Positions 90 to 57,200 of a stretch of DNA of 64,000 nucleotides are shown in pieces (positions within the stretch are counted from its first letter, which is position 1; the number at the start of each line of letters is the position of its first letter). The stretch comes from Girardia tigrina. Taxonomy: Eukaryota. The stretch spans positions 7,127 through 71,126 of the forward strand of contig MQRK01217099.1 in the NCBI GenBank assembly GCA_001938485.1, given 5' to 3'. The translations under genes were made by a program, and so were the position numbers. The notes below the pieces were generated by a model that was given only the letters and a program-made list of their open reading frames with translations, searched no databases and was not told where the DNA came from.

Positions 90-1459
90 TAGACGTTGCA
101 ACCACTTCTCACAGATACATTGTTGTGGCTTCCAAATTTAGTGACTTCATCCAGGCTCGGTAGGAAGTTTATGCAGTTGAAGTCATATTTGTGCTGCAGA
201 TTGTCGTATTTAGATACTCGTGATTTGACAATATAGCATACTTGAAGCACATGATGTCATTATTTTTTACATTAATGCATGCTTCTTTCTTGAATATCCA
301 TTCAGGAAGCCGTATATAGGAGCAGCCTCTCATTGGGGAATATTTATAAACATGAATTATCAATTTGATTAACGGATGCAAGAGTCCATCCACTCTTTTT
401 TTCCTTGCTCTCATCAGCTTCCTTCATTATCTTGGCATATTCTTCATTGAACCAGTTCATAATATCATCGGATTCTAACATTGGTCTATTTTTGGTCTTG
501 AAGGCTCTATGTGATAATTCATCATCAACATTGGTGAATGTTGCCTCCAATTTAATGTTGACTTTGGTAGCCTTGAAATCAACCATATTGTCTTGTAGAA
601 TCTCCATGGTTTCCTTCTTGGAATATTCCAGAAACTCATAGAGACTTGTAACCTTGCTGTCTAGGCTGCCTAGGTTAGCCTGGGGAGACTTGATAACATA
701 TTGACGTACTTTGTTATTCAATGAAGCTTTATGAATTGGTCTCTGTCTTGAGCTTTTTGATGGAAAATTTATGATGTTCGTATCATTGGCACGTTTTGAT
801 GAAATATTTGCAGCCTTGGCAGCATTCGAAACAGGTATCTCCATTGGAATATTTGTAATATTTACATGTTTTAAGGGAACTTTTATCGTATTTGAAAGAT
901 TATTCTCAATTGGGACATTTAACACATTCTTCTCAATCGGAACATTCGAAACATTTAGTGGTGCGAGAACTGGATACATTGATGATGGGAAAATTGTCTT
1001 CTTGGACTTTATTGAAAAGTCACTCAAATGGTCCATGTGGCTATCATAAAATTGATGATAGTCACCACTACTTGCATTTTGACATACTGGACAAATGTAA
1101 TACTCACATCTATTGAACGCATATCCATAGTAGCGCTGCATTGTATCATGACAAATTTGTGGATTGTGAATATTTGCCAGGTAACATCTGTATAATGGAC
1201 ATTGTTGAATTTTCGTAGGAATTTTCTCTTGAATCATCTTTGACATAATTTCTTTGAATATATTCTTTTTAGATTTGGTGAAAGGAACTAGATGTTGTTT
1301 ATGGTCATTGTAAAATTCTTCAAAACTAGTTCTGTACACTGACTCACATGTTGGACATATAAAATATTCTTGTGAAGAGAAATTGTATCTGTAGTATTGT
1401 GATAAATTTGAATTCTAAAAAAAATTATTTTTTTACAGAGCTGAAAAAAAACTCACCAT
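90..1459 (-). pseudogene. Polinton/Maverick-type protein-primed DNA polymerase B gene, N-terminal part, with two frameshifts; ATG-only first exon plus 42-nt intron (1415-1456)
   Basis: Joining ORFs 344..1339, 169..414 and 2..250 gives KSGWTL..(fs)..YSPMRGCSYIRLPEWIFKKEACINVKNNDIMCFKYAILS..(fs)..RVSKY..DFNCINF...KF..NNVSV, the motif string found upstream of invertebrate Polinton pPolB. ATG|gtgagt...ttttag|AAT is in frame with the long ORF. Confidence 0.75.
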
Positions 1460-2184
1460 TTTCTTAACAGGATTTTGAAATAATGATAGATGTCTGATTA
1501 GAAATTTAAAATATTGATTAAAATTCAAATTTGAAATTTAAATTTCGTTAAAATAATGAATGATATTATAATGAATGCAATTTTGTTGACATGAATGATG
1601 CATACAAAATACATGTTGTTATGTTTGCTGTCTAGAAAGCCTATGCATGTTTTATGTATTCCATAGGATTTTATATATAAAATTAAGGTTATATCAAATG
1701 GTTACGGTAACCAAGGTGCTTTGATAATTGATGTCTTGGTTCATTTACTTTACCAGATCATGCACATGTTATGTATAATGTATATGCACGTTTTAAGTAC
1801 AATATGAATTTTATAAATGTAGATTTTACATATAATATAAAAGGTTATTTATCTTGGTTACGGTAACCAAGAAACTTGTAATTGATGATTAGGTATATTA
1901 GGCAATTCATGAGGTATTTTTTGATGGTAAACAACATACATATATGATAGGGGTTTCAGATATATTCGAAAAAATTGATTTTTGAGATATTTTTTAAGAA
2001 TTTCCAAAATGTTCGAAAATATTGATTTATCAGCACTTTTTTGAAAATGTTGATATGGAATCTGAATGTACGTATATTGGTTATTATTCAAGTGCATGAG
2101 CACTTTTTTAATATTTTGCTTCCTTGTATTTCTAAAATCGATGTGCATTTTATGTAAATTTAAATTTCTAGGGTGTTCGGAACC

Positions 2185-2313
2185 GTTGCTTTGGTAACCG
2201 GAACCTTTGCTGTCTAGGGCTAGGGTGATCAGGACTGTTTTCATGCTAACCGCGACCGTTGCTATGGTAACCACGACTATTGCCATGGTAGCCGGAACCA
2301 CTACCATGGCAAC
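2185..2313. promoter_or_regulatory. 21-bp-periodic array of RFX X-box-like palindromes
   Basis: GTTGCTTTGGTAAC (2185), GTTTTCATGCTAAC (2237), GTTGCTATGGTAAC (2258), ATTGCCATGGTAGC (2279), ACTACCATGGCAAC (2300). Confidence 0.55.
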
Positions 2314-3974
2314 GGGCTACCCCCCGGGGGGAGGTGGTAACGAACATGCATTTTACCCCTACTTACACAACAATTGTGTTACCTGACTATGACATTCTAA
2401 ATACATTTGAATATATAGAAGTACTTATGTCAAAATCGATTTTTCAATGGCAGGGTGAACGTTTTTGAAAAGATGCAAATAAGAGTTAATTTCAAGTTTT
2501 TTAAGTAAAAGTTCATCAAACTACAGAACAGAAGAATGGGGTTGAAAAAAAAGCCATAACCCTAATATTCATTCTTCCAGTTATAAAAAAAATCATTAGT
2601 TTATGAATAGTTCACGAGTTACTTTGATAACAAATTTTAAATTGTTGAAAATGCAGAAAAGTAACAATAAAATTATAACACATTAATTTTCGATTAATTT
2701 CATTATTGCTATACTTACTGGAGAAAATTTTAGATGATTGACCGAATTTTGAGGCATATCTGCTTTTAATTAAATTAATTAACTTTACTTTTCTTTAAGA
2801 ATGAATGATATTGTGGATATTGATTGGACAGAATATTATTGAACAATTGATGAAAAACAGTTTTAAAATGATTAGTTTAATAATAAATAAGTAAATTAAA
2901 ATTTAATATTAAAAATTCATTTTGCAATGACATTTGAGAAATTCTTTGCTGCTGGCCGGAAGGATAATTAAAAATTGTATATAAAAACTGTTGATTTGTT
3001 TTTGTTATAATAAAATGTAAAGTAGTGGAAACTCTTCACATTTTTTTCTCAATAAAAATAATCAATTTAAAATTCAAATGACGAACATTTATTGTAAATC
3101 TCTACTTTAATCTCTACTTTACGTTAAAAGCTATGAAAAAAGAACCCGATAATCTTTACGAATTCGCTGTAAACTATTTTCGAATGCTATTGAAATTTCA
3201 TTTGGCCGAAGTACAAAAATCGTCATCGTTTTGTTGTGTGTATTGGAAAAATAAAGATTTCGTTGATATTGCTGATTTAATTGATGAATTTAAATGATAA
3301 AAGTTCTTATGGGGAGAAATTATCGGAACAGATTGAGCGTAACAGTGAATCATTGGGATTTATGAAAGAAAATGCCCAAGGGTTAGAAAATCAGATATTT
3401 TGTGTCGCGATAAAAAAAATTATGATCGTGAAGCGACTGGTCAGACTGTCGGTGATTTAATGATAAATAAATTCTATTTTAACTGTTTCGTTCGATTTTA
3501 ATTCATATCGAGAGAATGGTACTTTATTTTGATAATTTCCTGAAGGGACTGAGACGATAAAACCATGGCGACAAAGGATGACTACTACGAATCTACTCCA
3601 TCTCTGCAATCACCTACTTATATATTTTGAAGTAGCATAGCATTATAAAAAAATATTTATCCTTTTTTATAGTTAGAACTTTGTTTTTAAATATTTTAAA
3701 TAATTTGTGAATTTAAATAACATCTTCATCAAGGAACATAATTTTTAAAACGAAATTTAATCTTCCTTGTGATAGGAAGCCTGGCCTCCATCGAGAAGAA
3801 TGTTTTGAAAAATATTATTAATAAAAAAATTTTTTTATAAAAACAACCACGTTTTTCAAGCATCACCAATGCACTAAAAGGAGGAAAATAATTTTTTTCT
3901 AGACATGTGAGAAATTTTATACCTNNNNNNNNNNNNNNNNNNNNNNNNNNNNNNNNNNNNNNNNNNNNNNNNNN

Positions 3975-4510
3975 TTTTCTCTTTACTGCTTTTTAGTAAC
4001 AATCGATCATTTCTATGCCCCACGTTTTTGGTTAGGTATAAAATTTCTCACATGTCTAGAAAAAAATTATTTTCCTCCTTTTAGTGCATTGGTGATGCTT
4101 GAAAAACGTGGTTGTTTTTTAAAAAAATTTTTTTATTAATAATATTATTTAACTATTTTTAGTTATTATTTAGGAATTTTTTTTTCAAAATTTTTTTTAT
4201 CAAATTGTATTGTCATCGGAAGCAAGCCTGTATAAAACTTCATTCATGAAAATAAACGAAAAGATTGCTATTTAATACAGTGTATAAATTTGTAGATAAT
4301 CGTAAGTGGTTTTTTGCAAAAAAAATTAGAAAAAATTATTTTTTTTCAAAAATTTTTTTTATCAAATTGTATTGTCATCGGAACCAAGCCTGTATAAAAA
4401 AATCAGCTCAATTGGATGACTAAAAGTGGTCGAAAAATCGATCGCAAGATTTACAAACAAACAGACAGACAGACGTACAAGAAAGTAAGTTAAGAAAAAC
4501 GTGGTAATAA
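3975..4510 (+). mobile_element. Non-autonomous Helitron/Helentron-like interspersed repeat with internal tandem duplication
   Basis: Duplicated ~60-bp unit (about 4178 and 4340); aaatcagctcaattgg...(ACAG)n microsatellite...aagttaagaaaaacgtggtaat 3' architecture. Confidence 0.35.
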
Positions 4511-5264
4511 AATACCACACACTGAAAAAATTTAAGTATATTCGAGCATATAAGTTGTTATTTTGATATATTTCAATGCATTTGTACTATATGCAAACAA
4601 AGTAATGGTAGACATTTGATATTTTACAAATTTTTTATTAACTTTTATAGGGACTACTTTTTGTACCTTTCACTAAATTAGTTATAGATTTAGTTATAAA
4701 TTACTGACAAAAAATTAGAGTTCAAATAATCGCCCATTATAAGTCTTTAAAATAATATATCTTTTGATGAAAATTTTTCATAGTCATTTTAGTTTTAGTT
4801 ACTTTACTTTTATTTAGTAATTTTTATTTAAGAAAATAATAAAAATATTTTATATACTTAAATCTTGAGTAAATAAAATAAATAATGAAAAAATATGTCT
4901 ATAGGAAATTTGATACTTCAGTTTAAACTACATTTCTCAAATCCTATTTTGGTTTTATTTAAATAAATAAATTCATTAAAATGTTGATATTTTTACATCA
5001 AAATAAAGATAATTTAATTTATATATAAAAAAGTTTTATTCTTAATTAATTCCATAAATTTTATGTACCTCCTATTCAATTTTCCTCGGGTTGTATTAAA
5101 ACAAGGATAATTATATTTAAATGTTACTAAATACGCTGAAGCGACTTGATGGGGCTTGGTCATGTAACTGTCAGTAAAACGATTGCGGAATTTTGATTTA
5201 ATTTAATTAATTTCTAGAAAACCATCACATAAGTCAATGTTGATCTGAATATGCAAGTCTTATG

Positions 5265-5431
5265 AGTAGGGAAAAAATTTGCATTCTCCCCCATGACCCC
5301 CAGATGAGAATCCGTTACCATCACATTGGGTACCATAGCAACGGTCGTGGTTACCATGGTAACGGTGGCGATTTTCATAGTAAAGGTTCCGATTCCCCTA
5401 GCAACGGTTCTGATTACTATAGTGCCCTACT
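5265..5431 (+). mobile_element. 167-bp mini-element, AGTAGGG...CCCTACT, homologous to the Polinton-like terminus
   Basis: Same start and same 21-bp X-box repeat units as the reverse complement of 2185-2363; flanked by TATG on both sides. Confidence 0.55.
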
Positions 5432-6469
5432 TATGTTGTGAATATTTTTATGTCTTTTATTTTTGTGATAAATTTTATTCCTGGTTTAATGTACAAATGT
5501 ATTTTTTTTAGTTTGACCATGTAAAACAGCATGTTATTTTTTTTTAATTCTTTTTGTCAAGTCTAAAAAGTGATTTATTTATTTATTCTTTTTTAACGCA
5601 AGTAAGAAATTAAATGATCAAATAAAGAAAATTTAAAAGAAGGTAAAAGAAAGAAAGAAAGTTAAAAATCAAAAGAAAGGAAGAATCTACTGAATCTACT
5701 GGAAAAAAATTCAAATGAATTTATTTTTAATTATTTTATGATNNNNNNNNNNNNATGGCTAATCTAATTCGATATTTATCCGTTAGCTCGTTAGGAATCA
5801 TTTCTAATTCAGTGAAGCAGTTTCAAACATCAACTGTCATACTTTGTCTAAATCTCGATATACAGTTTTCTACATTTAAAGAGAGTTTGTCAGTTTGATC
5901 AACAATAGTTCGTGTCATATAAAAATTTTGGAGACTCAAAAGACTAAAATCAACGGAAGATTCGCTTTATACTCATCATCTTTCTGTAATTAATCGGATA
6001 TACATTATATGACGGTAATTCATACATAATATGAATTAAAAATTAAAATCGATCACAATAAACGATAATAATATTATGTCGATGGAATAGCTGCCAAGAC
6101 TGCCACTATCCTCAAATTCTGTTTCGAACAACATTTAAACAGTTGAAAAAACAACGACAGTTACCGACGAATTCTTCGAGCCTTTTGACAATTATTAAAC
6201 GGTTTACCGATCAACGACATTTACCGACGATTTTTTGAGCTCTGTATTTATTATTTGTATTGTTACGGTTAATTCAATTTATTGTTTAATCTAGCTTCTT
6301 ATTTTTTGAACGACTAAACAGATTCACCTGACCACATTTTAGCGCGGTTAATCTGTTTAGGATTTTATCATTTAATTTTTTTTGTGTGAAGGGAAAACCC
6401 TACATCCTTGTTAGAAGTAATAATTTCGGTTTACCTACAATTATTGTTAGTGGAGCGAAATTATTATAT

Positions 6470-6915
6470 CAACAATTACCTTAGCAACGGCTCCAATCAT
6501 CATAGAAACGCTTTTATGATGAATCATAAAATCACCGAAACAACCTTAAAATAACGTTGACAACCATCGAAAACACCTTAAATTACCTTGACAACCGTCA
6601 CCGCGACCTTAAAAATCATCAAAACACCTTAAAATCACGTTAACAACTGTCAAAATCACGTTACCGACCATCGAAAACACCTTGACAACCATCACAGTTA
6701 CCTTAAAAATCATGAAAACAAGTAAAAACCATCAAAATTTCACGAAAAGGTGCAAATCAATACTAGACATGTGCTAATCAATACTTGCACAAGTGTAAGT
6801 GGCCAATTTAAAAACCATCAAGGTCAGAAAAAAGTGCAAAAAGTGCTAATCAATACTGCACTGTGCGGCACACGTTCTAATCAATACTGCACATGTGCAA
6901 GTGTGCAAAATCATT
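6470..6915. repeat. Degenerate ~21-bp tandem repeats followed by GTGCTAATCAATACTGCAC repeats (probable Polinton subterminal array)
   Basis: caattaccttagcaacggctc-like units decaying into accttgacaaccatc units; four copies of the (g/t)taatcaatact core at about 6750-6900. Confidence 0.55.
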
Positions 6916-6990
6916 AAATTCAGAATTGTGTAAAGTGCAATTATAATTGTGATATATTTATTTTTTTTAATATAAAACGCAAAGACAAAA

Positions 6991-7312
6991 GTGTTGACAA
7001 GTGAGCAATTTAGCGAGTGGTTTCAGTCATCAGTAGGAGTAAGACAAGGTTGCATGGTTTCACAAACACTGTTCAACCTTTTCCTTGAGAGAATTGTTAT
7101 GGAAGCAATAGACGATCTAGACGATGTTGGAATAATCTGCGGAAGAAAAAGAATAACCAACCTACGATTTGCTGACGACATTGACCTAATCGGTAAAGAT
7201 GAGGCAGAGATTCAGGAACTCACGAATAGATTACACTAAGCGTCAAAAAAATTTGAAATGGAAATCAACAGACAAAAAAACTAAATAATGGTTTCAGGAA
7301 ACCAGGATCAAG
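6991..7312 (+). mobile_element. Non-LTR (RTE/CR1-like) reverse transcriptase fragment
   Basis: GVRQGC..S.TLFN and NLRFADDI motifs; in-frame stop. Confidence 0.88.
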
Positions 7313-9068: not shown

Positions 9069-12000
9069 CTAGTTTATAACTTATTTTTATTGAAACATGT
9101 TATTATAATTAATCAATTTGTTACAAAAATTATATCAATTGAATTTTTCTTTATTGAAAAATTTACAAGCGATATTTTGTTTTTATCATGCATAAATATC
9201 AACACACTTCGTCTGTCCATTTGCTTGCATCAAATATTGCAAATGATTTCCCCCGGTTCCTATTGTTCTATTGAACAGAAATTTCGTACAGTTGTGTAAT
9301 TAAGTAATCAATTTAGCAATTGGTAGCTGCAAATGTTTGGTTTGTGAGAATGGAAACGATCGCGTTAAATGTATTGCTGCTTCAATTTTATGAAAAATCC
9401 AATGATTTAATCATTAAAATGATTTTAAATTATTTTATAGTTCCGTATAATGTGTTAGTTTAATACATGTGTGGAATGGCCTGATGTTAAGATTATTATC
9501 TGAAAACGCGTTATCTTCTTATCCATACACAATTTTGATTTTCCCCTTCATTATCCTTTATTTATACATTAAAGAGAAAACTATTAAATTCAATATTTTC
9601 TATGTCAAAACTTTTGAATTTAAATATTTGTTTTCGTAAAATATACATTTTAAAAAATTGTTTTTAATGAGAGAATTAATATGAGAGAAACGATAAAGGA
9701 AATCGTACAAAGCTGTGTAAATTGTCAGAAGAGAAAGACCCTAACAACTAAAACAAAAGAGAAGCACATGAAACAATTTGCAGATGAACCCTTCCAAAAA
9801 CAGTATTGTGCACACTGACAGATTTCTGCGGACGGTTTAAAAGAAATATTAATGGATATCAATACATACTAGCGATAATCGATCAATTAAGCAGATACAT
9901 AAGTTTAAATGTCGTTGCCCATCAAGATGAGAAAATCGTAAGAAAAGTATTACTAGACAAATGGATTTGGAAATTCGGACCACCAAAAGAAATCCATGTC
10001 AATAGAGGAAAAACATTCGAATCAGCACTTTTTACAGACACAATGAATAAGTTTAAAGCTGAAATAGTATATTCCAGTCCCTACCACCACAATACCAACG
10101 TGATCGTGGAGCGACAATTCAGAACAATTAGAGATGCCATAAATATACGAATGAAGGATGAAACTAACAAATACTGGACGGAAATTTTGCCAGAGGTAGA
10201 ATTTATGTTAAATAACAGAATTCAAGCTACTATATGTGTCTTACCAGCGGAAATAATATTTGGCAGGAAGTTAAGACATTGGTGGAAAAATACCAAGGAA
10301 GAAAAAGTCCGGAAAGAAAAGAGCAAAAATGTAGTAGAGAAAAAACGAACTTTTCAAGTTGGTGACAAGGTGTTGATAAAGAGAGAAAACATAACAAAAG
10401 AAGAAGATCGATATATGGGTCCGGCAACAATAAAGAACCGTAGACACGAAAGAAGTTATGAATTGGAATTAGATGGTAGAATTTTGATAAGGAATGTAGA
10501 ATGGCTAAAGCCATTTAAATCGAGGGGGATGTGAGGAATATTTTTGGATGGTGTTTATTGTGTGTTGTTTGGTATGTTGTTTAAGGATTATGCTTTTCCC
10601 ACCCAGATGGTAGATTGATATTTTAAATATTTTAAAACGTCGGGTTGTTTAATCAATTATTAAAATTTAAATAATCACTTTAAAATTAAATTAATATTTC
10701 ATAAATAATATTTTAATAATATTTTCTTAANNNNNNNNNNNNNNNNNNNNNNNNNNNNNNNNNNNNNNNNNNNNNNNNNNTAAAATTTAAATAATCACTT
10801 TAAAATTAAATTAATATTTCATAAATAATATTTTAATAATATTTTCTTAAAATAAATAAAAATTATTTTAAATTTAATGAATAAATTATTTTTGTAATAA
10901 TTAAATTGTAATTTAAATTTGTTTGAATAATAAAACGTTAAAGAATTTTATTAAAGATTATCAATCAAGAACGATGACGAGTTACGCAAGTTTTACGGAG
11001 AATTGTTCTAGTAACAATTCAAATTGTGGTGAAAATAAATGTAAAGAAAATTCAATTAATGTTCTTAATAACGTTTTTTAATTAATAAAAGATTTTAACG
11101 TTTTATTTATTATCAATTTTTCAGTTTAAAAGTTTTTATTACCTAAAATTATTTTAAATACAAAAATATACAAGTTTAAATACAATTTGTTTTAAATACA
11201 ATTTAAATACAAAAAATAATTTACAGTATTCAAATTTTTATTATTATTACGATACATTAATGATAAAAGTTTTAATTTTAATTTTTTTACGAAACTGTTT
11301 AGAATTAAGTATTTGTCAAATCTTTAATTTGCAGAATTTTAAACTGACTTTAAAATTTAAAATTATCTGTTTTTTTTAATTTACATCTCTGGCAACAAAG
11401 TTCATTATTTTATTTTTTAGAATAACTTTTAAAATTAGTACAAACATAATTATCCTTATCTTTATATATTTCTTTTAAATCAATTATTTAAAAATCCATT
11501 ATTTCCCAATTAATTTCATTTTAATTTTTTACTCTACAATTAAAATTCGATTATTTCCGAAAATATCTTTTTAAAATTAATTAAGATATATTTTTTAAAT
11601 ATAGTTGCTTAGAGAACTTTTGATTTTAAATATTTCCTTATTTTAGAAAATTCTTTGTAAAAATTAATTGTTTCAAAAATTTTAAGAGTGAGCCTTCACA
11701 ATTTCATTACGTGCATCATGTGACAATGATGAAATTTCCACAAGAACATTTAGGTTTTTATGCAAACACTCGATTTAAATCTGGTACACTAGTAAATGAC
11801 ATTTTTTATAGAACTGAAGGCTGTTCGGGCAGGAAAAGCTCTTGTATATATTTACGAACAATATAAAGATTGGTTAAGGATTTTAAAGATGGAGCAAGAG
11901 AAACATTCGGCGATGAAGCTCGTCTTAGAATACCGCACATTTCAACAAACGGGGACTCAAAAGAAAAGGGGGAAGAAGCACTTTTAAGGTATCCATTTAT

Positions 12001-43100: not shown

Positions 43101-46100
43101 CCTAATTAATTATTAATTGTTTGCCAAATTATAATCTCAGAGATCTTTTCATCTCATAATCTTTAGATTATGAATGAGCAATCATTAATGTTTTTTCAAT
43201 TTTATTTCCAAAAATGGAGATACATAGTTGCCTTTTCCGATTGGTAAAGCATTTAAAGTTAAAGCTTCAGGAGTTACGTTTAATAAGAGAATGCAACAAT
43301 AATAGATTGTTGCCATTAGATTTATACCATTAGAAAAAATTGAGAAAGCATTCGAAGTTTTTATTAATGATTTTCAAATGATTATATCACCGTAATTATT
43401 TTGGTACGCGGGGGTTTGACCACAGGAGCTGTTTCCATAGGTGGTTTGACCTAGGGTGGTTTGTCCACAGCAGGGGTTTGACCATATGTGGTTTGTCCCA
43501 GCGACGGTTTAATATTTTTAATATTTTTAAAATATAATTTCATTAAAGCTTCTTATATATATTTATTGGACATGTTTCGATGCTTACATACATCATCATC
43601 AGCAATATTTGTAAATTTAGTATTTTAATATATGTATAATTCAATATTTTAATTGTTCTTAATAATATGATTTTAAAAGGTATATTAAGTTTAAATGGAA
43701 TAGTTTTCAGAATATATTATAATTTATAAAAGTATTATTGGATAATAACGACAAAAATATTTTAATTAAAAATTTGAAGTATTGAAATAATTTTACTTTG
43801 CCCATTTAGGTGATTTCATTACTTATAATGTTTCATTAAAATATTTTTGCCATTAGTACTCAATAATACTTTTATAAATTATAATATATTCTGAAAACTA
43901 TTCCATTTAAACTTAATATACATTTTAAAATCATATTATTAAGAACAATTAAAATATTGAACTATACATATATTAAATCGAGTAGGCCTGACACCAGCCT
44001 TTATGTGGACCATAAACTAATAAATTCTTTGTTTTCATATATATATATATATATATATATTAATTTTTGCTGAAATATATGTTTTTAAACGAATATACAG
44101 GATGATTCATAAGTATGATTCACCCCCTCATATTTTGATTACCTATTTTCTAAATTAAAATTTGACGTCATATTAATTTTGAATATTTGCTTATATATAG
44201 TTTTTTTATGCTACTCATTTGAATTTATATGTTAAATATTGAAATTTTCATTAATGACTTATTTTTTTTTAAATTTTAGATAAATTAAATGTCAAGAGTA
44301 TTTAGTGAATTTAGTGGAGAAGATTTGACGAGAAGATAAGATGTATTTGTACTGTCGCTTCTGACACTTAGTAATTCTGTTCCACCAGAGGTAAATGATG
44401 CTCAGAAGTATCTTCAAACAAAAGGCTCGATCTGCATCAAGGTTCTGTCAAGCGCATAGCACTGAGAGATTACATTTTTAAGAATAGAGAAAAGATGGTG
44501 GACAGTGCAAGGTGGTGGACGAATCCAAGAAGCTCTGCTTTGAAATGTGGATAAGCATGGAGCGTCGAATTTGCAAAAAGAAAAGAATGGAGGGCGAGGG
44601 ATCGACTGATGTAATGATGACATTTGATGCTGAGCTGAAACTGGAAAATGCTGATTGTCGTAGACAGGTTGATTGACGAAGTATATTCAAAATTTCAATC
44701 TTGCAAACAAATATGCCATCATTGCACCATCGAATTTCTTTGGTAATAATTACGATTGCCAACTTGGTGAAATAGAAGACGGGGCGGAGAAATAAGCATT
44801 CTTAGTCAAAAGAAGACTGCAGTATTTTGTCCAAGCTACAGGAAACGACAGAATCAACGGACCTTTATAACATATGAGCTTCATACAGAGATATCACCTT
44901 AGGGACTTCTTCCCTAATATTGTGATCTTGCTGCACATCTTTCTTACCCGGGATATTAGCGTTGCCAGCTACGAACACTCGTTTTCCAAATTGAAGCTCA
45001 TAAAGAATTATCTTCGATCTACAATGAGTCAATTACAGACTTACCAGTTCTCTCCATATAGAGGAGCTTGCTGTTGAACTGAATTTTGATACTGTTATTA
45101 ATAAATTTACAGAAATGAAAGGGCAAAAATTTCGCTTGTAAATTGTAAATTTTGAAACGACTTCGTTACTTGGTAATTTTTAGTATAAGAATAAGAGTAT
45201 TGCAAGAAAAATATGAAATTAAAGTAAGGATTTTGAGACTAAGAATAACAGAGCTCTATTTAATTTTTAGCAGAAACAGTAATTGAGAGTTTCGAATAAT
45301 GGTTTAATGTTACAGTTAGGGTTAGGGATGCGGCAAATCTTAGGACCGCCTTTAGCGCCACTAAAAGTTGCTACACCACTGATTACATTTATTTTCATTG
45401 TAGTGACCAAAAATTAAATATTAATATTTATAAATATATTTATATACTAAAATTCTATATCATTATTTATAAAAAAAGAATACTTTATAATTATCGTCGA
45501 TTTTAATGACAAATGATTTTATGATAACAAGTTGTTTGTCCAAATCATTTTTAATTTGGTAAAAAAATTTGAAATTCAAAATAAATCTTTCTCTTAATCG
45601 TCTCATATTTTTTATAATGAAAATAAACTCCGGAATTATCCGTTGAGTCTACTGTAACGCAATAAAATGGTATCAGAAAAAGGAAAGGATGACACTTATC
45701 CGCTATCAGTTATCCCCCCTGGATACATTCCAGTGATCGAGATTCCAGGCGACGCCAACTCTCCGATTCGACAACCGGAACTTCACACCGATCTAATCCA
45801 AATAGCCAGCGATACACAGATCGGTTGTTCGAGTCTGTTCCAAGTGTCCGACACGGCTTCAACGGATCGGGTGTGAAACTCATTTTTCCGATCAATTACG
45901 CCAATCAAACACTTCGTCCATATGCGACTAACTGCTCCTGCCAGTCCTGTCATCAACATGCCGAGCGATGATTACCTCAATATGAAACCGAAAATCCTGA
46001 ACTGACGGTTAGAAATCACAATTCCACGAACAGTCAGGGTTTAAGCCTCTTCGTCTACACCGCACCTTAAGCCAGTATGATATTATTGATAATACTGTGC

Positions 46101-49100
46101 TCAGTTGCTAATTTACCATTCTGGGGGTAGTGATGAACTGACCGACTTTAAAACTGCACCGGCTGCTGACACTAGTACCCTTAAGGCCACACCACCGACC
46201 TTCTTCACCGATCATACCGGATCCCCGAGGGTTTGACTTGAGCTCATGGTTTTCAGGTTGAAGGCGATGCATCTTTATTTGCAGAGCAGCTTGTTCCAGA
46301 ATCTGCCCAGCGCAATTCCGGCAGAACAGCTCCAGATGCTTGCACCACATCTCGCAACCATAATCCAGCACACGGAGCCGTATGATCAACTTCGGCGACA
46401 AATCATGATGGCTCACGAGCCCAAATTTGATGTTGTCTTTGAAAACTATTTCAAGACACAACAAGTCAGCATACTGAAGCCATCACAATTCCTGCAACGA
46501 GTCATCGGTGATCTGGAATTGATCCAACTGGGGATCACCCAGGACAAAAACACGGCGATTTTGAAGAAATCGTTGCCGTCGATGCACAAGGCTATTCTCG
46601 CAGCCACCAGCACCACCGATTTACAAGAACTGGCAGTAATCGCAGACACAATCGGCTAAACAATGCCTTCCAGTTCCGACAATTGCTTCAACCTGTCCAC
46701 ACCCACCACTGGATACCAGAATCCGGTGGTGGTTAAAGAACAGAATTGTCAGATTGAGACACTGACAGCTCAGATAGCTAAGATGACCACCATCATGTTT
46801 GATTTGGCATCCACTGTCGCGTTGTTCAATTCGGGACCCGACAACCGATACCGCGGCTGATCCAACGGTCGACATGACCACCGGAAGAATCAGACGAAGC
46901 AACAAACTCCCCTTTGCTATTATCACCGCAAATTTGGCACCACGGCCAAGAAATTCCAACCCAGTTGTGAGTGGAAAGGCGACCGCACGACACTCGAGAT
47001 AACCGACATTTGGCACTCAAAATTCGACAAAGAAGCCAGATCATGTGCCCCCGGGTGCAAACATTCAGCGCCAAAAAAACTGGTTTAACATTTCATCCAT
47101 GTAGCAGATGACAAAGACGAGGACAGTTGCAGCGTTTATTTACTTATGACACCCACATATGTAATAGCACCATTTCACTGGCGTCTTTTTGGTAGACACT
47201 GAATCTACACTATCCGTCTCACCACGCTTTTTCCAACCGCACAGCACCCGACATACACAGCAACTCATAACGGCGAATGGATCCAGAGTTCAAACTTTTG
47301 GCAGACAACAACTATCCTTCTCCCTGAAACAACTGAATTAAACTTTTAAATGGACATTGATAGTTGCTGAAGTCACTCAACCCATCCTAGGTGCAGATTT
47401 TTTCGATCATATCAACATCCTCGTCGACTGCAGGAATCGGAAACTAATCTTCAACGACCATATTTCCGACAGACAAAACGTGCCACCGACTCTTGCTGGC
47501 ATCCACGAAATCCGGGAAGCACCATTCGACATCAACCGCAATCACAAGGACCTGCGAGACGACACCACGCCGCTCAGAAATGTCGAGACTCAGGGATTGC
47601 GAATCCATCCAGGAAGAACATCAACCGCTCGATGTAGTGAAGGGACACCGACCCGCCATCGGGTCTATTCACGAAGGTTACCACACTATGTTATTTCCAC
47701 CGTCGATTCGACAAGAGAACGAAGAATTGTCAACCGGGTGCACATTTTCCTGTGACGAATCCGAATTTCAGATGACCGAAGTGTGCATCTGGTACACCCA
47801 ATTCGGAACAGATGCCAAAGATTGCGCACTAGGATGCTTCCATCACAAAGAAAAAAACTAGTTCCACTCCTCATAACCCCAGCGAATGAGGCAGGTGACG
47901 TTAACTACTGCAGCACCACCAAAGCGTGGTTCCGTGTAGGTGACCATAACCATATCAATCACAATACAAATTACGACCACATAAACCATAACACCCAATA
48001 CAACAATAACCATCCATCTTCAGCACGACGTTCAGTCTCCTTTGCACCATTGGTCCAGTTTAATGACTCTCCCACCTAACCATAATTCCCATCATGCTCC
48101 GCATTTATCGTTGGGGGCTGATGTAGCGACGAAAAATTAAATATTAATATTTATAAATATATTTATATACTAAAATTCTATATCATTATTTATAAAAAAG
48201 CATACTTTATAATTATCGTCGGTTTTAATGACAAATGATTTTATGATAACAAGTTGTTTGTCCGAATCACTTTTAATTTGGTAAAAATTTTGAAATTCAA
48301 AATAAATCTTTCTCTTAATCGTCTCATATTTTTTGTACTGAAAATAAACTCCGGAATTATCCGTTGAGTCTATTGTAACACAATATCCATAAATATTAAT
48401 TTAAGAGTATATTTATACAGAAGACTCCGGATAACCCGATTTCGGATAACTCGATAATCCGGTTTACTCGATACAATCTGTGAATCCCTACTGTATAAAT
48501 ATTTGCATAACCCGATATTAAAAATAAAAAAGCAAAAGCAGGGCCATCTGAGAAACATAATTTTCTATTTTTTATGTTGATTTATTAAATGTTAAAAAAT
48601 ACATGTAATATTTAATTAATGTAATATGTTATGAAATTTTAAAAAATTACAATTTGTTTAAGTGTTTAAAATTGTAAATTTGTTTAAATCAAACTTTTTT
48701 AAATTTTAAAATCTGTCTTTGTTAAATAAAATGACATTTTCTATAAAAGTGTGATTGTTTTATTTCAAGTTTGTTTAAAATCTAAAGATTTCGATTTTAT
48801 CCATAACAAAGGTTAATGCAATAAATAATACAATACAATAATTAATCACTTTTAGTTTAAAATATCCCTGTCCTAACACTGACAGTAATGGCATCAAAAT
48901 CAAGAAGCTTTAAAAGATCGTGCAGAAGCAAAGACATTCAGAAAAGCATGAGATTGTTCTATTCGTCATCTCCAATCCTCCCAGGAAACAAAAAATGTGT
49001 GCTCAAAATTCGGATTAAAGCAGTCTACATTGTCAACGTACCTGAGTAATAAAGAAAAAATCATCGAAGAGTATCAGAACATGGACTCGACACTAAAGTA

Positions 49101-52100: not shown

Positions 52101-54160
52101 TTTATTTAAAAATTAGATCTTAATCGAATCACTTAATCAAACTTTTTCATAATAGTCGGGAGGCATTAAATCAATTGATCAATTAATGTTTACAGTTTTA
52201 ATCTCTTTTTAAAATAAATTTTTATCTTAATTTTATTCTTCATTGAAATATAAAACGAAATTTGAGAGACAATTTAGCGCATATATTTGAACGTGATCAG
52301 GAAGATTCGCGAAGAAGTTATTAATTTTTACTGACTCAGTTTTATATTAGTTCAGTAATTCAGTTGTTGCGAGTTGGTTGGCTCGCATCGTTGAAGACCA
52401 GAGAAAGTCGAATTAAAATAACCGGAATGAGTGAGATATTAGTCAGGAGATGTTTGGCTATGATAGACAGTAATTTAAACGAGTCCGAAATAGATTAGGA
52501 GTGTGATTGGGTTCGCTCTGAACTAAACAAGGCAGATGTCTTAACTAGAATACCAAGAAAATGAAATGAAAGGAAATGTTGTATTGTTCAACAAGAGAAA
52601 AAATTAAACGAAGCAAGAAAGAGTCATGAACGACATCATTTTGGGATCGAGAAAAGCCGTCTGATAGCAGAAAAAGGTATTTAAGTATCGAAAAAAGATA
52701 GGGAGAGTGTTGTTCAAAACTGCCAACGGTGTAGTAGTATTGATCCCGCCCCTATAAAAACACCAAAGGAATCATTAAAGGAAAACATGTTGGGAAAGAT
52801 TGGCTATAGATCATACCCATTACAAGAATAGAGTATATTTATCAGCAATTGATTGTGGACCCAGTCGATTTTCAATTTCGAAAGAAGTAAAAACTGAAGG
52901 AGCCGACGACGTAATAAAACGTCTCGATGAATTATTTATAGAGCATGGAGCTCCAATAGAAATCCTTGTTGACAATGGAGTAGCTTATACAGGGAACAAA
53001 TTCAAACACTTGTGTATTAAATGGAGTGTTAAGATAGACTATCGATATTCGCATGGTCCCAGTACGAACGGTATTGTGGAGCGCTGTCACCGTACGATAA
53101 AAAGAATAGCGAAGAGATCTAATATTACTATTGCTGAAGCTGTGCATTGTTATAACATTGGTCCTAAAAAGAAGAAAATATGGAATTAAATCTCCAAGTG
53201 ATATATTATTTAACTACAATTGGAGGATAATCGGTGAAAAAATAAACGTAGAACTGAGGAGTGACGATTGTAGAATGTTTGAAGTAGGAGAGAAAGTATA
53301 TGCCAAGCCGTGTCAACATGTTCGATGTACAAGTCAATTGGGTCGGGCTATAATCACAGCAAAAATTAGTCACAACAAATACGAAGTAGACGGAGTTCTG
53401 AGACATATTCAGGATATCAGAAAACGATCTGATGATCAGAATAATTCTGAAACGAGTTTATTGATGACTTATAAACCATGGAAGACGAGAGCGAAGCAGT
53501 AGATGAGGAGTCGAATGTTGAAGAGATTATGTACCAAGCAGATCGTGACGAGCAACACAGAAGCGATATAGAGAGAAGAGATTCTCTATTCTCGATTTTA
53601 TTCCTTAGAATTTAAATAATTTTAGAAAAATTAATTAGTAAATGTTTTAATATATTATAAAATATAATGGGAAATAAGTTTGCAAAATTTCAGTTCAATC
53701 AGATAAAGAAAACTAAGAGAAGTCATTTCTATTATATATATTATTTCTATTTCAGTACATAACATACAAACTGAGCGAATGTATATAAAACGCAGTAAAA
53801 ATAACACTTAATTCGAAAAATTTTATAATAAAAAATTGTCAATGTTATTTTCTACTAATTGTAAAATTAAAATATAGGTAATATATTTCATTATATATAT
53901 ATATATATATTTACAGATTCAAAATAAATTAAATTTAAAATTAATAACTAACAATCGATTTATTTCATAAGTGAAATTCTGTTAGTTCTTTAAAGTAAAA
54001 AATGTCAAACAGTTGTGAAGTCTATTAATAGATAATTAACAAAAAGAAACTACTTGATTAGTTTTCCTGTTGATGTATCGCTAAATGAAAACAAGTTGCG
54101 AAAACCATGGTCAGGTTTCATAGAAACACAATTACACATGTTAATTTGCATTACTTTCGA

Positions 54161-54203
<43 letters not shown>

Positions 54204-57200
54204 NNNNNNNNNNNNNNNNNNNNNNNNNNNNNNNNNNNNNNNNNNNNNNNNNNATATATATATATTACTACTCAGGGAGTGTGCACTGAAAAATCTATAA
54301 AAAATTAAAAAAATAAATTTTAAATAAAAAAACTTTAAAAAATAATTAATAATTCATTTAAATAATTATCATGTTTCAAAAAATATCAAGTAAATATTTC
54401 AATTTTATTGGAAAGTGTAATCATTTCTTTTCAGATTAATAATTTCTTAATTTCACATAAAAGTAAACAAATCATGGAACAATCTTATTTCTTTCGTGTT
54501 ATTTTCTCGGAAATTTAAAAATCAATAATAAATTAATATACTCAATTAAGTAACTCTGATATCATAACAAATAAAAAATTGGCTGAAGATTAAAATAATG
54601 AGAAATGATTAAGATAAATCAAATGTACGAGTCTAGTGAATTTTGATCGATGTATCTTTCCTTGTGATAACTTTAAAAGAAAATAAAAGAACAAATATTT
54701 AACAGACTTATTAGTTTTCCACAAAAGTAAAATTCTAAATTAATATGATTATATTACATAACAATAAAAAATTACTAAAACTCATTATAAACATAATGCG
54801 TTGGAGAAAGTCTACTAAAGAAGAAAGATTTATAAATTCACTCAGATGAAGACTATTTGAAATTTTTAGAACTAGCCGAAAATAAAGTTAAAGCTGTGTC
54901 AAGTCAAATGCGCCTGATACAAGAAAGAGTTTGATTTTACGAGCCAAGCATTGGTGAATTGTGCTAGCACCTTGCACAATTTCATATTTTGCATTTATAG
55001 TCCCACAAAAAAGCTAAATAGATTTCGACAATGAGTTTTTTTACAAATCAGGTAGCCTGATAAAAGTTTCAAAAAAAAGTACAACTCATGTTGTGAGTTT
55101 TGAAATACAAACATATTAATTATATGCTCGTTTAGAAATCGCTAAACGTTTAAACGTACTAAAAAACGAAAACGTTTAAACGGTCGTAAAAACGCTAAAC
55201 ATGACCACCTCGAGAAGCGTACCACCGTAACACAGAGATTACGAAATGGGGATCTGATTTTTGGCGGGGATTTAATAATGTTTTTTTAAATATTCATAAA
55301 TTATTAGTGTGAATTTAATAAAGCGTGTTCAGCTGGTGTTCTATTTCTGGTGACATTACATATCAATCTAATCGGAGTAGTAGATTCACCAAACAAAACA
55401 GCATACAAACAAAAAACTTACAGCATTCTGAATTTCCCCTCACAATATAGATGTTAAAAAAGTTTTTTTAATTAAATATTGACATGTAATTCTAAAAATT
55501 TATTGTATTTAAAAAAATAATAAATTAAATTTGAAAATAAGAATTTTAATAAATAAAACATCAGTATTTACAATTCAGTATTTTATGTATAATCAATCTG
55601 GTAGGAAAGAAAACAAGATAAAAATTCCTCAGCAAAAATTGTTTGTTAATTGTTATAGAAATAAAGTTTTGCGTTTTCATGATTTTAAATCTTGATCACG
55701 ATCCCAACAGTAGCAAATTTAACATGCCACTGTCTTCGTACCTCTTTATATTAGGTGTATAACTTAGTTTTTTGGATTTTCTAAGAGATGGTGTAACCTT
55801 TGTAATAAGCATTATTTACAGTTGTACGTACAGATTTTTAAAGTACTGAAATCGAGGTATTACAATTAAGTAGGTCATTGACCTTAAATGCGTCATAAAC
55901 ATGTTTTTAATCACGTTTTAGCATGACAACTTTCATACCAACAAAACAGCATTTGCGGGAAGCACTACTGTTTTGTTTTAATCAAAAGAAAAAAGCTGCA
56001 GACAGTTTTCGGCTTCTTGAAGAAACTTATNNNNNNNNNNNNNNNNNNNNNNNNNNNNNNNNNNNNNNGTATAAACGTTTCAAAAGTGGAGATTTCGACG
56101 TAAGTGACAAAGAGCGTTCCGGTCAACCAAAAAGATTCGAAGATGAAGATTTGGAATCATTACTGAAGGAAGATTCTACTCAAACAGAGAAAGTGCTTAC
56201 AAAACAGTTAAATGTTACTCAAGCAGCCATAAGTAAACATCTACATACTATGAAAATGATTCAAAAAGAACGAAAATGGATACTACATGAATTGAATCAA
56301 GCCAACATTGAAAGTCGATTACTGATATTCAATTCATTGCTTACAAGACAACGAAGATGGTCGTTTTTGCATAATATTGTGACTGGAGATGAAAAATGGA
56401 TTTATTATGTTAACTCTAAACGCAAAAAATCGTGGGTTCATCCCGGCGAACCGTCCACGTCAACAGCAAAAAGAAACATTCATGGAAGCAAGGTTATGTT
56501 GTGGTTTATTTGGTGGGATCAGAAAGGTGTACTGTACTATGAGCTGCTGAATTTGAATGAAAATGTTAATGCAGAACGTTATCAACAACAGTTAATGAAA
56601 TTGAACGATGCATTGAAGGACAAACGTCTTATTCCAGTCAACAAACAGCGCACAGGGATTTTGCTCTATGACAATGCTCGGCCACATGTCGCAAAACAAG
56701 TAAAAAACACGTTGGAAGCACTTAAATGGGAAATTCTACCGCATGCTGCCTATTCACCAGATTGTGCCCCATCAGATTATCATCTGTTCCGATCAATGCA
56801 AAGCGCTCTTCGGGACCAGTACTTCAGAAACCAGGAACATATAAAAAATGGCTGGAACAATGGATCGCATCAAAAGACCAAGACTTTTTTTTCGATGGAA
56901 TTCATAATATGTCTGAAAGATGGTCGAAAGTCATAATTAACGATGGAAAATATTTTGATTAGAATAAAACTTTAAAAATAATAATAAGTTTTTTGACATA
57001 ATAAGTTTTATTCTAATCAAAATATTTTCCATCGTTAATTATGACTTTCGACCATCTTTCAGACAAATTATGAATTCCATCGAAAAAAAAGTCTTTCTAA
57101 AACTATAAATTTTATTTTATAGAAATTTTTTTATGAAATTCTATTTGGAATCAATTTAAATGTTTTGTTCTGATTTTAAAGAAAAATTTTAATCAACAGA

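Follow-up and report, generated by a model that had tools for sequence, protein, structure and literature searches.

A phased array of X-box-like palindromes at a probable Polinton-type terminus in Girardia tigrina, with host RFX as a candidate binder

The window analysed here, a stretch of 64,000 nucleotides from Girardia tigrina (contig MQRK01217099.1), is an AT-rich animal locus with many transposon relics. It holds a multi-exon carnitine palmitoyltransferase-1-like host gene on the minus strand (~13950-51850), the introns of which are full of mariner, pogo and hAT relics and an exon of which is 43-47% identical to octopus, hydra, sponge and tubeworm proteins. The Polinton-type element considered below does not include the two integrase (rve) frames, 9788-10534 and 52779-53499. 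The first of them, on the plus strand (9788-10540), has a purine tract and then TG at its end, a pattern that suggests a Gypsy-type LTR element. At 45399-48385, long direct repeats ~2,720 bp apart enclose a stretch rich in GC (46-48 kb), several frames of which lack Pfam matches, and this is a possible unannotated LTR-like element. Near-perfect fold-back pairs (93-99%) at 3805-4152, 43624-43977 and 56880-57095, the first of which adjoins an assembly gap, are either MITEs or assembly artefacts. The features at the left edge of the window are as follows.

110-1414, minus strand: N-terminal part of a gene for a family-B, protein-primed DNA polymerase (pPolB), a broken relic
1415-1459, minus strand: ATG (1457-1459), then a 42-nt GT-AG intron (1415-1456), with splicing predicted from the sequence
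1700-1712, no strand assigned: GGTTACGGTAACC palindrome in the first copy of a duplicated ~70-bp unit, carrying the half-site of the array and not a strict X-box
1852-1872, no strand assigned: second GGTTACGGTAACC copy, here part of a longer palindrome (21 bp, 1-nt centre)
2164-2313, plus strand: array E1, in 21-bp units made of a 14-bp X-box-like palindrome and a 7-bp directional linker
2164 (degenerate), 2185, 2206-2229 (10 bp longer), 2237, 2258, 2279 and 2300, plus strand: cores of E1
2314-2356, minus strand: GC-rich terminal spacer, holding a C6G6 palindrome at 2320-2331 and a single RFX-type half-site at 2336-2341
2357-2363, minus strand: AGTAGGG in minus-strand reading, the putative terminus of the element, pointing into the polymerase gene

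Three frames on the minus strand (347-1414, 172-423 and 5-256) are colinear pieces of one protein. The pieces are 78-79% identical to the relative P0001, the third is 79% identical to P0004, and close relatives span all three. The gene is frameshifted near 363 and near 220, similarity ends near 110, and the copy in the window is dead. That it encoded a pPolB had been proposed from the sequence alone (hereafter the sequence-only reading), and the relatives bear this out. The middle piece matched 1,487 representatives in a search of representatives, and Pfam on 20 long or close relatives found DNA_pol_B_2 in one of them (P0066) and Endonuclease_7 in nine. All four motifs sought (ExoI/PolA/PolB/PolC) are present in P0042 and P0066, and P0004 aligns to P0066 with an E value of 6e-44. 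A structure model of P0042, of moderate confidence (pLDDT 61, pTM 0.32), has phi29 polymerase as its best match in the PDB (E 3e-10), with a weak match to polymerase kappa over ~125 columns (E 0.03). Among viral models it matches adintovirus and bidnavirus-like PolB with E values down to 3e-39; its three nearest structural neighbours are PolB proteins annotated as densovirus, followed closely by a bidensovirus and by adintoviruses. The terminal-protein, OTU and polymerase layout of pPolB given in the available text of PMC11161782 fits the relative and, together with the P0042 model, suggests terminal-protein and OTU labels for the relic. The same text describes diverse homing endonucleases inserted in polinton pPolBs. 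A label of adintovirus Beta PolB on the basis of an endonuclease VII domain was rejected, the word endonuclease being absent from the available text of PMC8502044, and no Alpha or Beta label is given here.

The three polymerase pieces had no Pfam match of their own, and it was the search of representatives that identified the protein. A profile of the close polymerase family had no match among PDB sequences, no longer relatives of residues 225-356 were found, and all matches of 152 relatives to the window lay below its position 1500. The relic contains a 27-bp in-frame tandem repeat in its linker region (890-955) and is CpG-poor (o/e 0.43 vs 0.98 for the window). The start codon placed at 1459 by the sequence-only reading is plausible, as the 42-nt intron would join it in frame to the long reading frame. 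Pfam matches to a capsid, ATPase or protease were absent from the 26 frames and the 148 of 170 listed frames scanned in the window, and the body of the element would lie beyond the window edge.

The array upstream of this gene was largely described correctly by the sequence-only reading. Its core positions at 2185, 2237, 2258, 2279 and 2300, the exact 21-bp period of the last four, the C6G6 palindrome and the two occurrences of GGTTACGGTAACC (1700-1712 and 1856-1868) were all recovered, and the sites lie 242-859 bp upstream of the ATG at 1459. Three further features escaped it: a degenerate unit (2164), a homologous array in inverted orientation at 5265-5431 and, at ~6474-6735, a related array that is weaker. 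Relative to GTTRCYATGGYAAC, the five cores have 1, 3, 0, 2 and 2 mismatches in the order given. With up to two mismatches allowed, this palindrome pattern occurs 14 times in the window against 1.5 expected, a number reached by none of 100 shuffles, and 13 of the 14 matches fall in three clusters. A phased pair of sites at any period from 15 to 40 appeared in none of 300 Markov-simulated windows. The phased 21-bp array is real and not a product of chance. The sole length variant inside E1 is an addition of 10 bp, one helical turn, and the two GGTTACGGTAACC sites are copies within a duplication spaced 155-156 bp. Frames running across the arrays (1861-2316, 2198-2383 and 5217-5508) belong to no family found and are by-products, because the repeat period is divisible by three. 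Rfam covariance models had no match on any array within 1400-7000, with one sub-threshold match at 3202-3318 (29 bits vs a gathering threshold of 86), and the array DNA had no match among phages and plasmids. A sigma-70 scan was set aside as irrelevant to an animal host.

Distant relatives of the polymerase (30-39%) lie on six GTDB contigs, and none of the six has an array beside the gene, just two having more than 1 kb upstream; one (L004) has an isolated site with two mismatches, and four are too short upstream to count. These contigs (L001-L006) encode eukaryote-type pPolB relatives in prokaryotic MAGs, into which DNA of eukaryotic or viral origin has probably been mis-binned. Retroelement frames and a 68-70-bp tandem array are also present in L006.

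The inverted array downstream of E1 forms part of a short element, termed E2.

5259-5264, plus strand: CTTATG, left copy of a 6-bp duplication
5265-5431, plus strand: mini-element E2, inverted homolog of E1, with an AGTAGGG start and a CCCTA(CT) right end
5314 (partial), 5329, 5350, 5371, 5392 and 5413, plus strand: six units of E2
5430-5435, plus strand: CTTATG, right copy, the first two bases of which can also be read as the terminal CT of E2, leaving a 4-bp duplication

E1 and E2 align with a score of 58 (shuffle maximum 27, 0/300), are ~73% alike and both keep the 21-bp step. Their homology stops exactly at AGTAGGG, the outer flanks aligning no better than shuffles (151/300), and it is absent inward of ~2176 (230/300 shuffles), the shared unit being just ~190 bp. 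Downstream of 2313, 32 of 46 aligned bases are identical between the two, and the C6G6 palindrome is not kept in E2. E2 is self-contained, 165-167 bp long and bounded by 7-bp inverted ends, its right end reading either as CCCTA with the 6-bp duplication or as CCCTACT with 4 bp. The chance of such a flanking duplication is 0.3% for CTTATG and 1.8% for any 6-mer within 20 positions. The right end may be a cryptic one taken from the array, as TAGGG resembles a variant of the core, and E2 is a candidate non-autonomous Polinton derivative consisting of the end and the array only. AGTAGGG matches the (AGT)2 end motif that the available text of PMC8097293 gives for vertebrate Mavericks at five of six positions, as an imperfect repeat. 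The Polinton-like terminus placed at 2363 by the sequence-only reading gains from the end that it has in common with E2, from the homology that stops there and from the 6-bp duplication around E2, and a Polinton-type end at this position is quite probable. Membership of the element among Polintons is likely. A second TIR was absent from the window for the first 25 nt of E1 at up to 7 mismatches, and the other end is expected before position 1. E1 and the polymerase gene would belong to one continuous element, a continuity that is unproven because the homology of E1 with E2 ends at ~2176.

This boundary bears on the idea that E1 and E2 are copies of an independent, non-autonomous, MITE-like family, one of which landed 0.7-0.9 kb upstream of the pPolB relic. 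Such a family would suit the confinement of the homology to ~190 bp, the self-contained form of E2 with its inverted ends and its 4-bp or 6-bp duplication, the presence of TAGGG also at the inner end of E1, and a window dense in transposon relics. However, no duplication flanks E1 at its inner end in nine of nine word tests, ends of the AG...CT type together with a duplication of 6 bp follow the Polinton pattern, and the half-site of the array recurs between E1 and the gene; we regard an independent family as quite unlikely. Among known short families, the Helentron-derived HINE/DINE-1 elements are likewise non-coding, with palindromes and central tandem repeats, but in the available text of PMC4067079 they have paired 12-15-bp subterminal repeats and insert at TT targets without duplication, unlike E2. 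The true terminal ends and flanking duplication of E2 rule against its being a Helentron or HINE.

As for the factor that could bind the array, the RFX X-box consensus is GTNRCC-N0-3-RGYAAC, and the E1 cores fit the X-box in the available text of PMC10530576. The strict consensus occurs in just three places in the 64 kb (2185, 2258 and 5350), all of them in E1 or E2, and the other 8 of the 11 scored cores lack it. The view of the cores as RFX X-boxes went too far: in strict form it stands for 2185 and 2258, two of the five cores originally named, and fails for 2237, 2279 and 2300. It also fails for the GGTTACGGTAACC sites at 1700 and 1856, which each have one good half-site and a centre too short for the RFX consensus. 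The half-site GTTRCY is matched by 9 of the 22 half-sites of the scored cores, and it occurs 6 times within 204 bp and 5 times within 167 bp, vs 68 times in the other 60,320 bp. In the left half-sites position 4 is G in five and A in four, position 6 is T in seven and C in four, and positions 2, 3 and 5 are constant in 9-10 of 11. Variation falls mostly at the two positions that RFX tolerates (transitions 10/40 vs 6/62, p=0.051) in a post hoc test on non-independent units with position 1 left out, and the signal is lost once position 1 is counted (p=0.23).

The sequence-only reading had proposed to test whether the cores are more conserved than the linkers, and had counted cores no better conserved as a refutation. 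Between E1 and E2 the cores are no more conserved (55/77 vs 25/32 identical positions, p=0.63), in a comparison of just two decayed copies that has low power. Across units, the pairwise score is 0.63 for cores vs 0.73 for the nine inner linkers with the two array-leaving linkers dropped (0.56 with these included), and for the five units originally named it is 0.69 for cores vs 0.51 for linkers. The linker positions C..AC are invariant in all nine inner linkers, though they lie outside the published X-box. Because these three positions do not vary, what is conserved is the 21-bp unit as a whole, ~18 bp with a 3-bp variable spacer, linker bases included, and not the core alone.

A conserved unit that reaches past the X-box into invariant linker bases is what could be expected if the terminus were the same and the 21-bp units were iteron-like sites for a protein encoded by the element itself, such as the zinc-finger N-terminus of pPolB, an integrase or another product, the likeness to RFX sites reflecting a shared mode of dimer binding. 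The half-site GGTAACC recurs at 1700 and 1856 in a spacing that the N0-3 rule of RFX bars, the polymerase relic starts with two C2H2-like repeats (a match that is a lead only, score 0.82), and E2, with its end, array and duplication, has the composition expected of a cis-element for mobilisation. Nevertheless, the 14-bp cores fit the RFX consensus at the usual spacing and their variation falls where RFX tolerates it, and among the window frames scanned by Pfam, which cover an element that is mostly missing, there is no RFX-like winged-helix gene. An element-encoded binder appears unlikely to us.

Equal divergence of cores and linkers could also point to a neutral minisatellite in the TIR, in which a palindrome arising by chance was amplified by slippage or unequal exchange and its likeness to RFX sites is incidental. 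Unit number and length do vary between E1 and E2, other internal duplications occur in the neighbouring DNA, and the E1 strand folds no better than shuffles (z -0.86), which speaks against a structural role; folding of E2 is marginal (z -1.93, 10/200 shuffles). Yet two copies that are ~73% alike, and perhaps a third, have retained both the unit and the 21-bp step, and a random palindrome would seldom fit the consensus of one factor so well. Neutral amplification is a rather doubtful account of the array.

The possible third copy lies further downstream.

6474-6735, plus strand: third array, more diverged, with two X-box-like units (6475 and 6496) and related repeats after them, spaced 21, 55, 31, 52, 21 and 21

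Its local score against E1 is 31 (shuffle maximum 30, 0/300) and its score against E2 was reached in 6/300 shuffles, a borderline case for relatedness to the other two. The stretch 6408-6905 around it begins with a ~68-bp hairpin (6408-6475), continues with the X-box-like units and then carries AATCAATACT repeats spaced 21, 72 and 31; it is possibly the end region of a diverged subfamily, and many of its spacings are near whole helical turns. The spacings other than 21 in the three arrays, namely 52 in E1, 15 in E2 and 55, 31 and 52 in the third, are whole turns in three of five cases, which is not significant. A likeness between 1900-2160 and 6720-6980 was discarded as not significant (18/300 shuffles).

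Between E1 and E2, a broken coding-like stretch on the plus strand (2798-3600) has a weak likeness to RIIa docking domains at 3082-3294. The Pfam RIIa match (E 0.015) and the PDB matches to PKA RII-alpha (E 0.11) and Sp17 (E 1.6) are all below cut-off, and reading through the stops gained nothing. RIIa dimerisation/docking domains occur in radial-spoke and sperm proteins, and the X-boxes could conceivably be the original or co-opted promoter of a host ciliary gene of which this stretch, 0.7-0.9 kb from E1, is what is left. Apart from the subthreshold matches in a broken frame, this would have to accommodate an E2 array with its own duplication and seven tandem X-boxes joined to an element-like end, which is unusual for a host promoter, and we consider it very improbable.

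The terminus itself compares best with those of Polintons. Vertebrate Mavericks have (AGT)2, (AG)3 or (AC)3A ends and 6-bp duplications in the available text of PMC8097293, and Polinton TIRs measure 100-1500 bp with 5-8-bp duplications in that of 10.1101/2023.08.22.554363. Like the TIR of a Polinton/Maverick (adintovirus), the present end starts with AGTAG, near the (AGT)2 and (AG)3 motifs, a duplication of 6 bp flanks E2, and the pPolB gene runs inward from an end at a distance within the TIR range. It differs in that the end is AGTAGGG, that one end and a broken polymerase are present, the polymerase expected of such elements being represented by its N-terminal relic only, and that E2 is a mini-form of 165-167 bp. 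Bidnavirus-like pPolB elements are similar in that their PolB proteins are neighbours of the P0042 model, whereas the intron, the AG...CT ends and the 6-bp duplication found here would rather suggest an integrating Polinton-type element.

Host-factor sites at the ends of linear viral genomes offer a functional comparison. In adenovirus ITRs, such sites (NFI, NFIII/Oct-1) act on replication and transcription. These ITRs, which carry NFI, NFIII, Sp1 and ATF sites in the available text of PMC5717082, are alike in being protein-primed ends of linear dsDNA with host-factor sites just inside the terminus. They hold single sites for several factors within ~130 bp, whereas E1 and E2 iterate one palindrome 6-7 times at two-turn spacing, starting ~50 bp inside. 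RFX itself has viral precedents: RFX1 and RFX3 bind the D sequence of the AAV ITR (PMC5760533, available text) and RFX1 binds the HBV enhancer, with an effect described as inhibitory (PMC7077322, available text). At the AAV D sequence and at the EF-C (EP) enhancer sites of HBV and polyomavirus, a terminal repeat or enhancer of a virus is bound by RFX dimers, which affect expression. In each of those cases a vertebrate virus carries a single site, and experiments have shown it to be bound, whereas E1 is a tandem array in an invertebrate endogenous element with binding that is predicted. In the viral precedents RFX1 is a ubiquitous activator or repressor and not a ciliary timer. The array may work like a viral ITR decorated with host-factor sites, the RFX status of its cores being read from their sequence, and it hints that Polinton-type elements, like adenoviruses and AAV, make use of a host regulator at their termini.

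Taken together, we favour a reading in which the array, lying within the TIR, is a platform for phased, multivalent binding whose likeliest, predicted occupant is host RFX, and give this reading a probability of roughly 45%. Granted a terminus, RFX is somewhat better than an even bet as the binder for which the array was selected. The array would be the subterminal block of the TIR of a decayed Polinton/adintovirus-type element with its pPolB gene reading inward, in which, 50 bp inward of the end, a 21-bp unit multiplied in tandem. The 21-bp step would present one X-box palindrome per two turns on the same helical face. In the active element this would most likely have been a multivalent landing pad for host RFX dimers, next to the protein-primed replication origin and upstream of the polymerase promoter, where the platform would set the time of polymerase transcription or help to load the terminal-protein/polymerase on the end; a role of the array in transcription or replication, like the identity of the binder, is what we infer from this layout. 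E2 would then be a short insertion of a related subfamily with an E1-like end and array. In planarians, the silencing of Polintons is lifted as cells differentiate to brain and epidermis (PMC8532177, available text). The ciliary or germ-line timer suggested by the sequence-only reading is only one option among several. In a bolder version, which we hold to be a long shot, the RFX array would be a cell-state switch, with the element firing in ciliated or spermatogenic cells rich in RFX or being silenced by RFX until released, and the element would shed 165-bp duplication-flanked mini-elements that scatter portable RFX enhancers.

In the literature searched, with subscription papers for the most part, Repbase and supplements outside its scope, we found no RFX sites or tandem palindrome arrays described in Polinton TIRs, and no cis-acting site inside these TIRs beyond the end motif. 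The available text of PMC11464507 mentions Polinton, TIR and RFX in unrelated places, and PMC5494522 does not mention RFX.

If the array were merely a minisatellite in a dead TIR, it would amount to a minor annotation. A defined, repeated site resembling that of a host factor offers a direct handle on the way Polintons are activated and on the cells in which this happens. If the favoured reading is true, the pattern of host factors at linear viral ends known from adenoviruses and AAV would extend to endogenous Polintons. The 165-bp duplication-flanked form, if it is what it appears to be, would mean that the end and the array are sufficient to integrate, and such forms could seed RFX sites near host genes.
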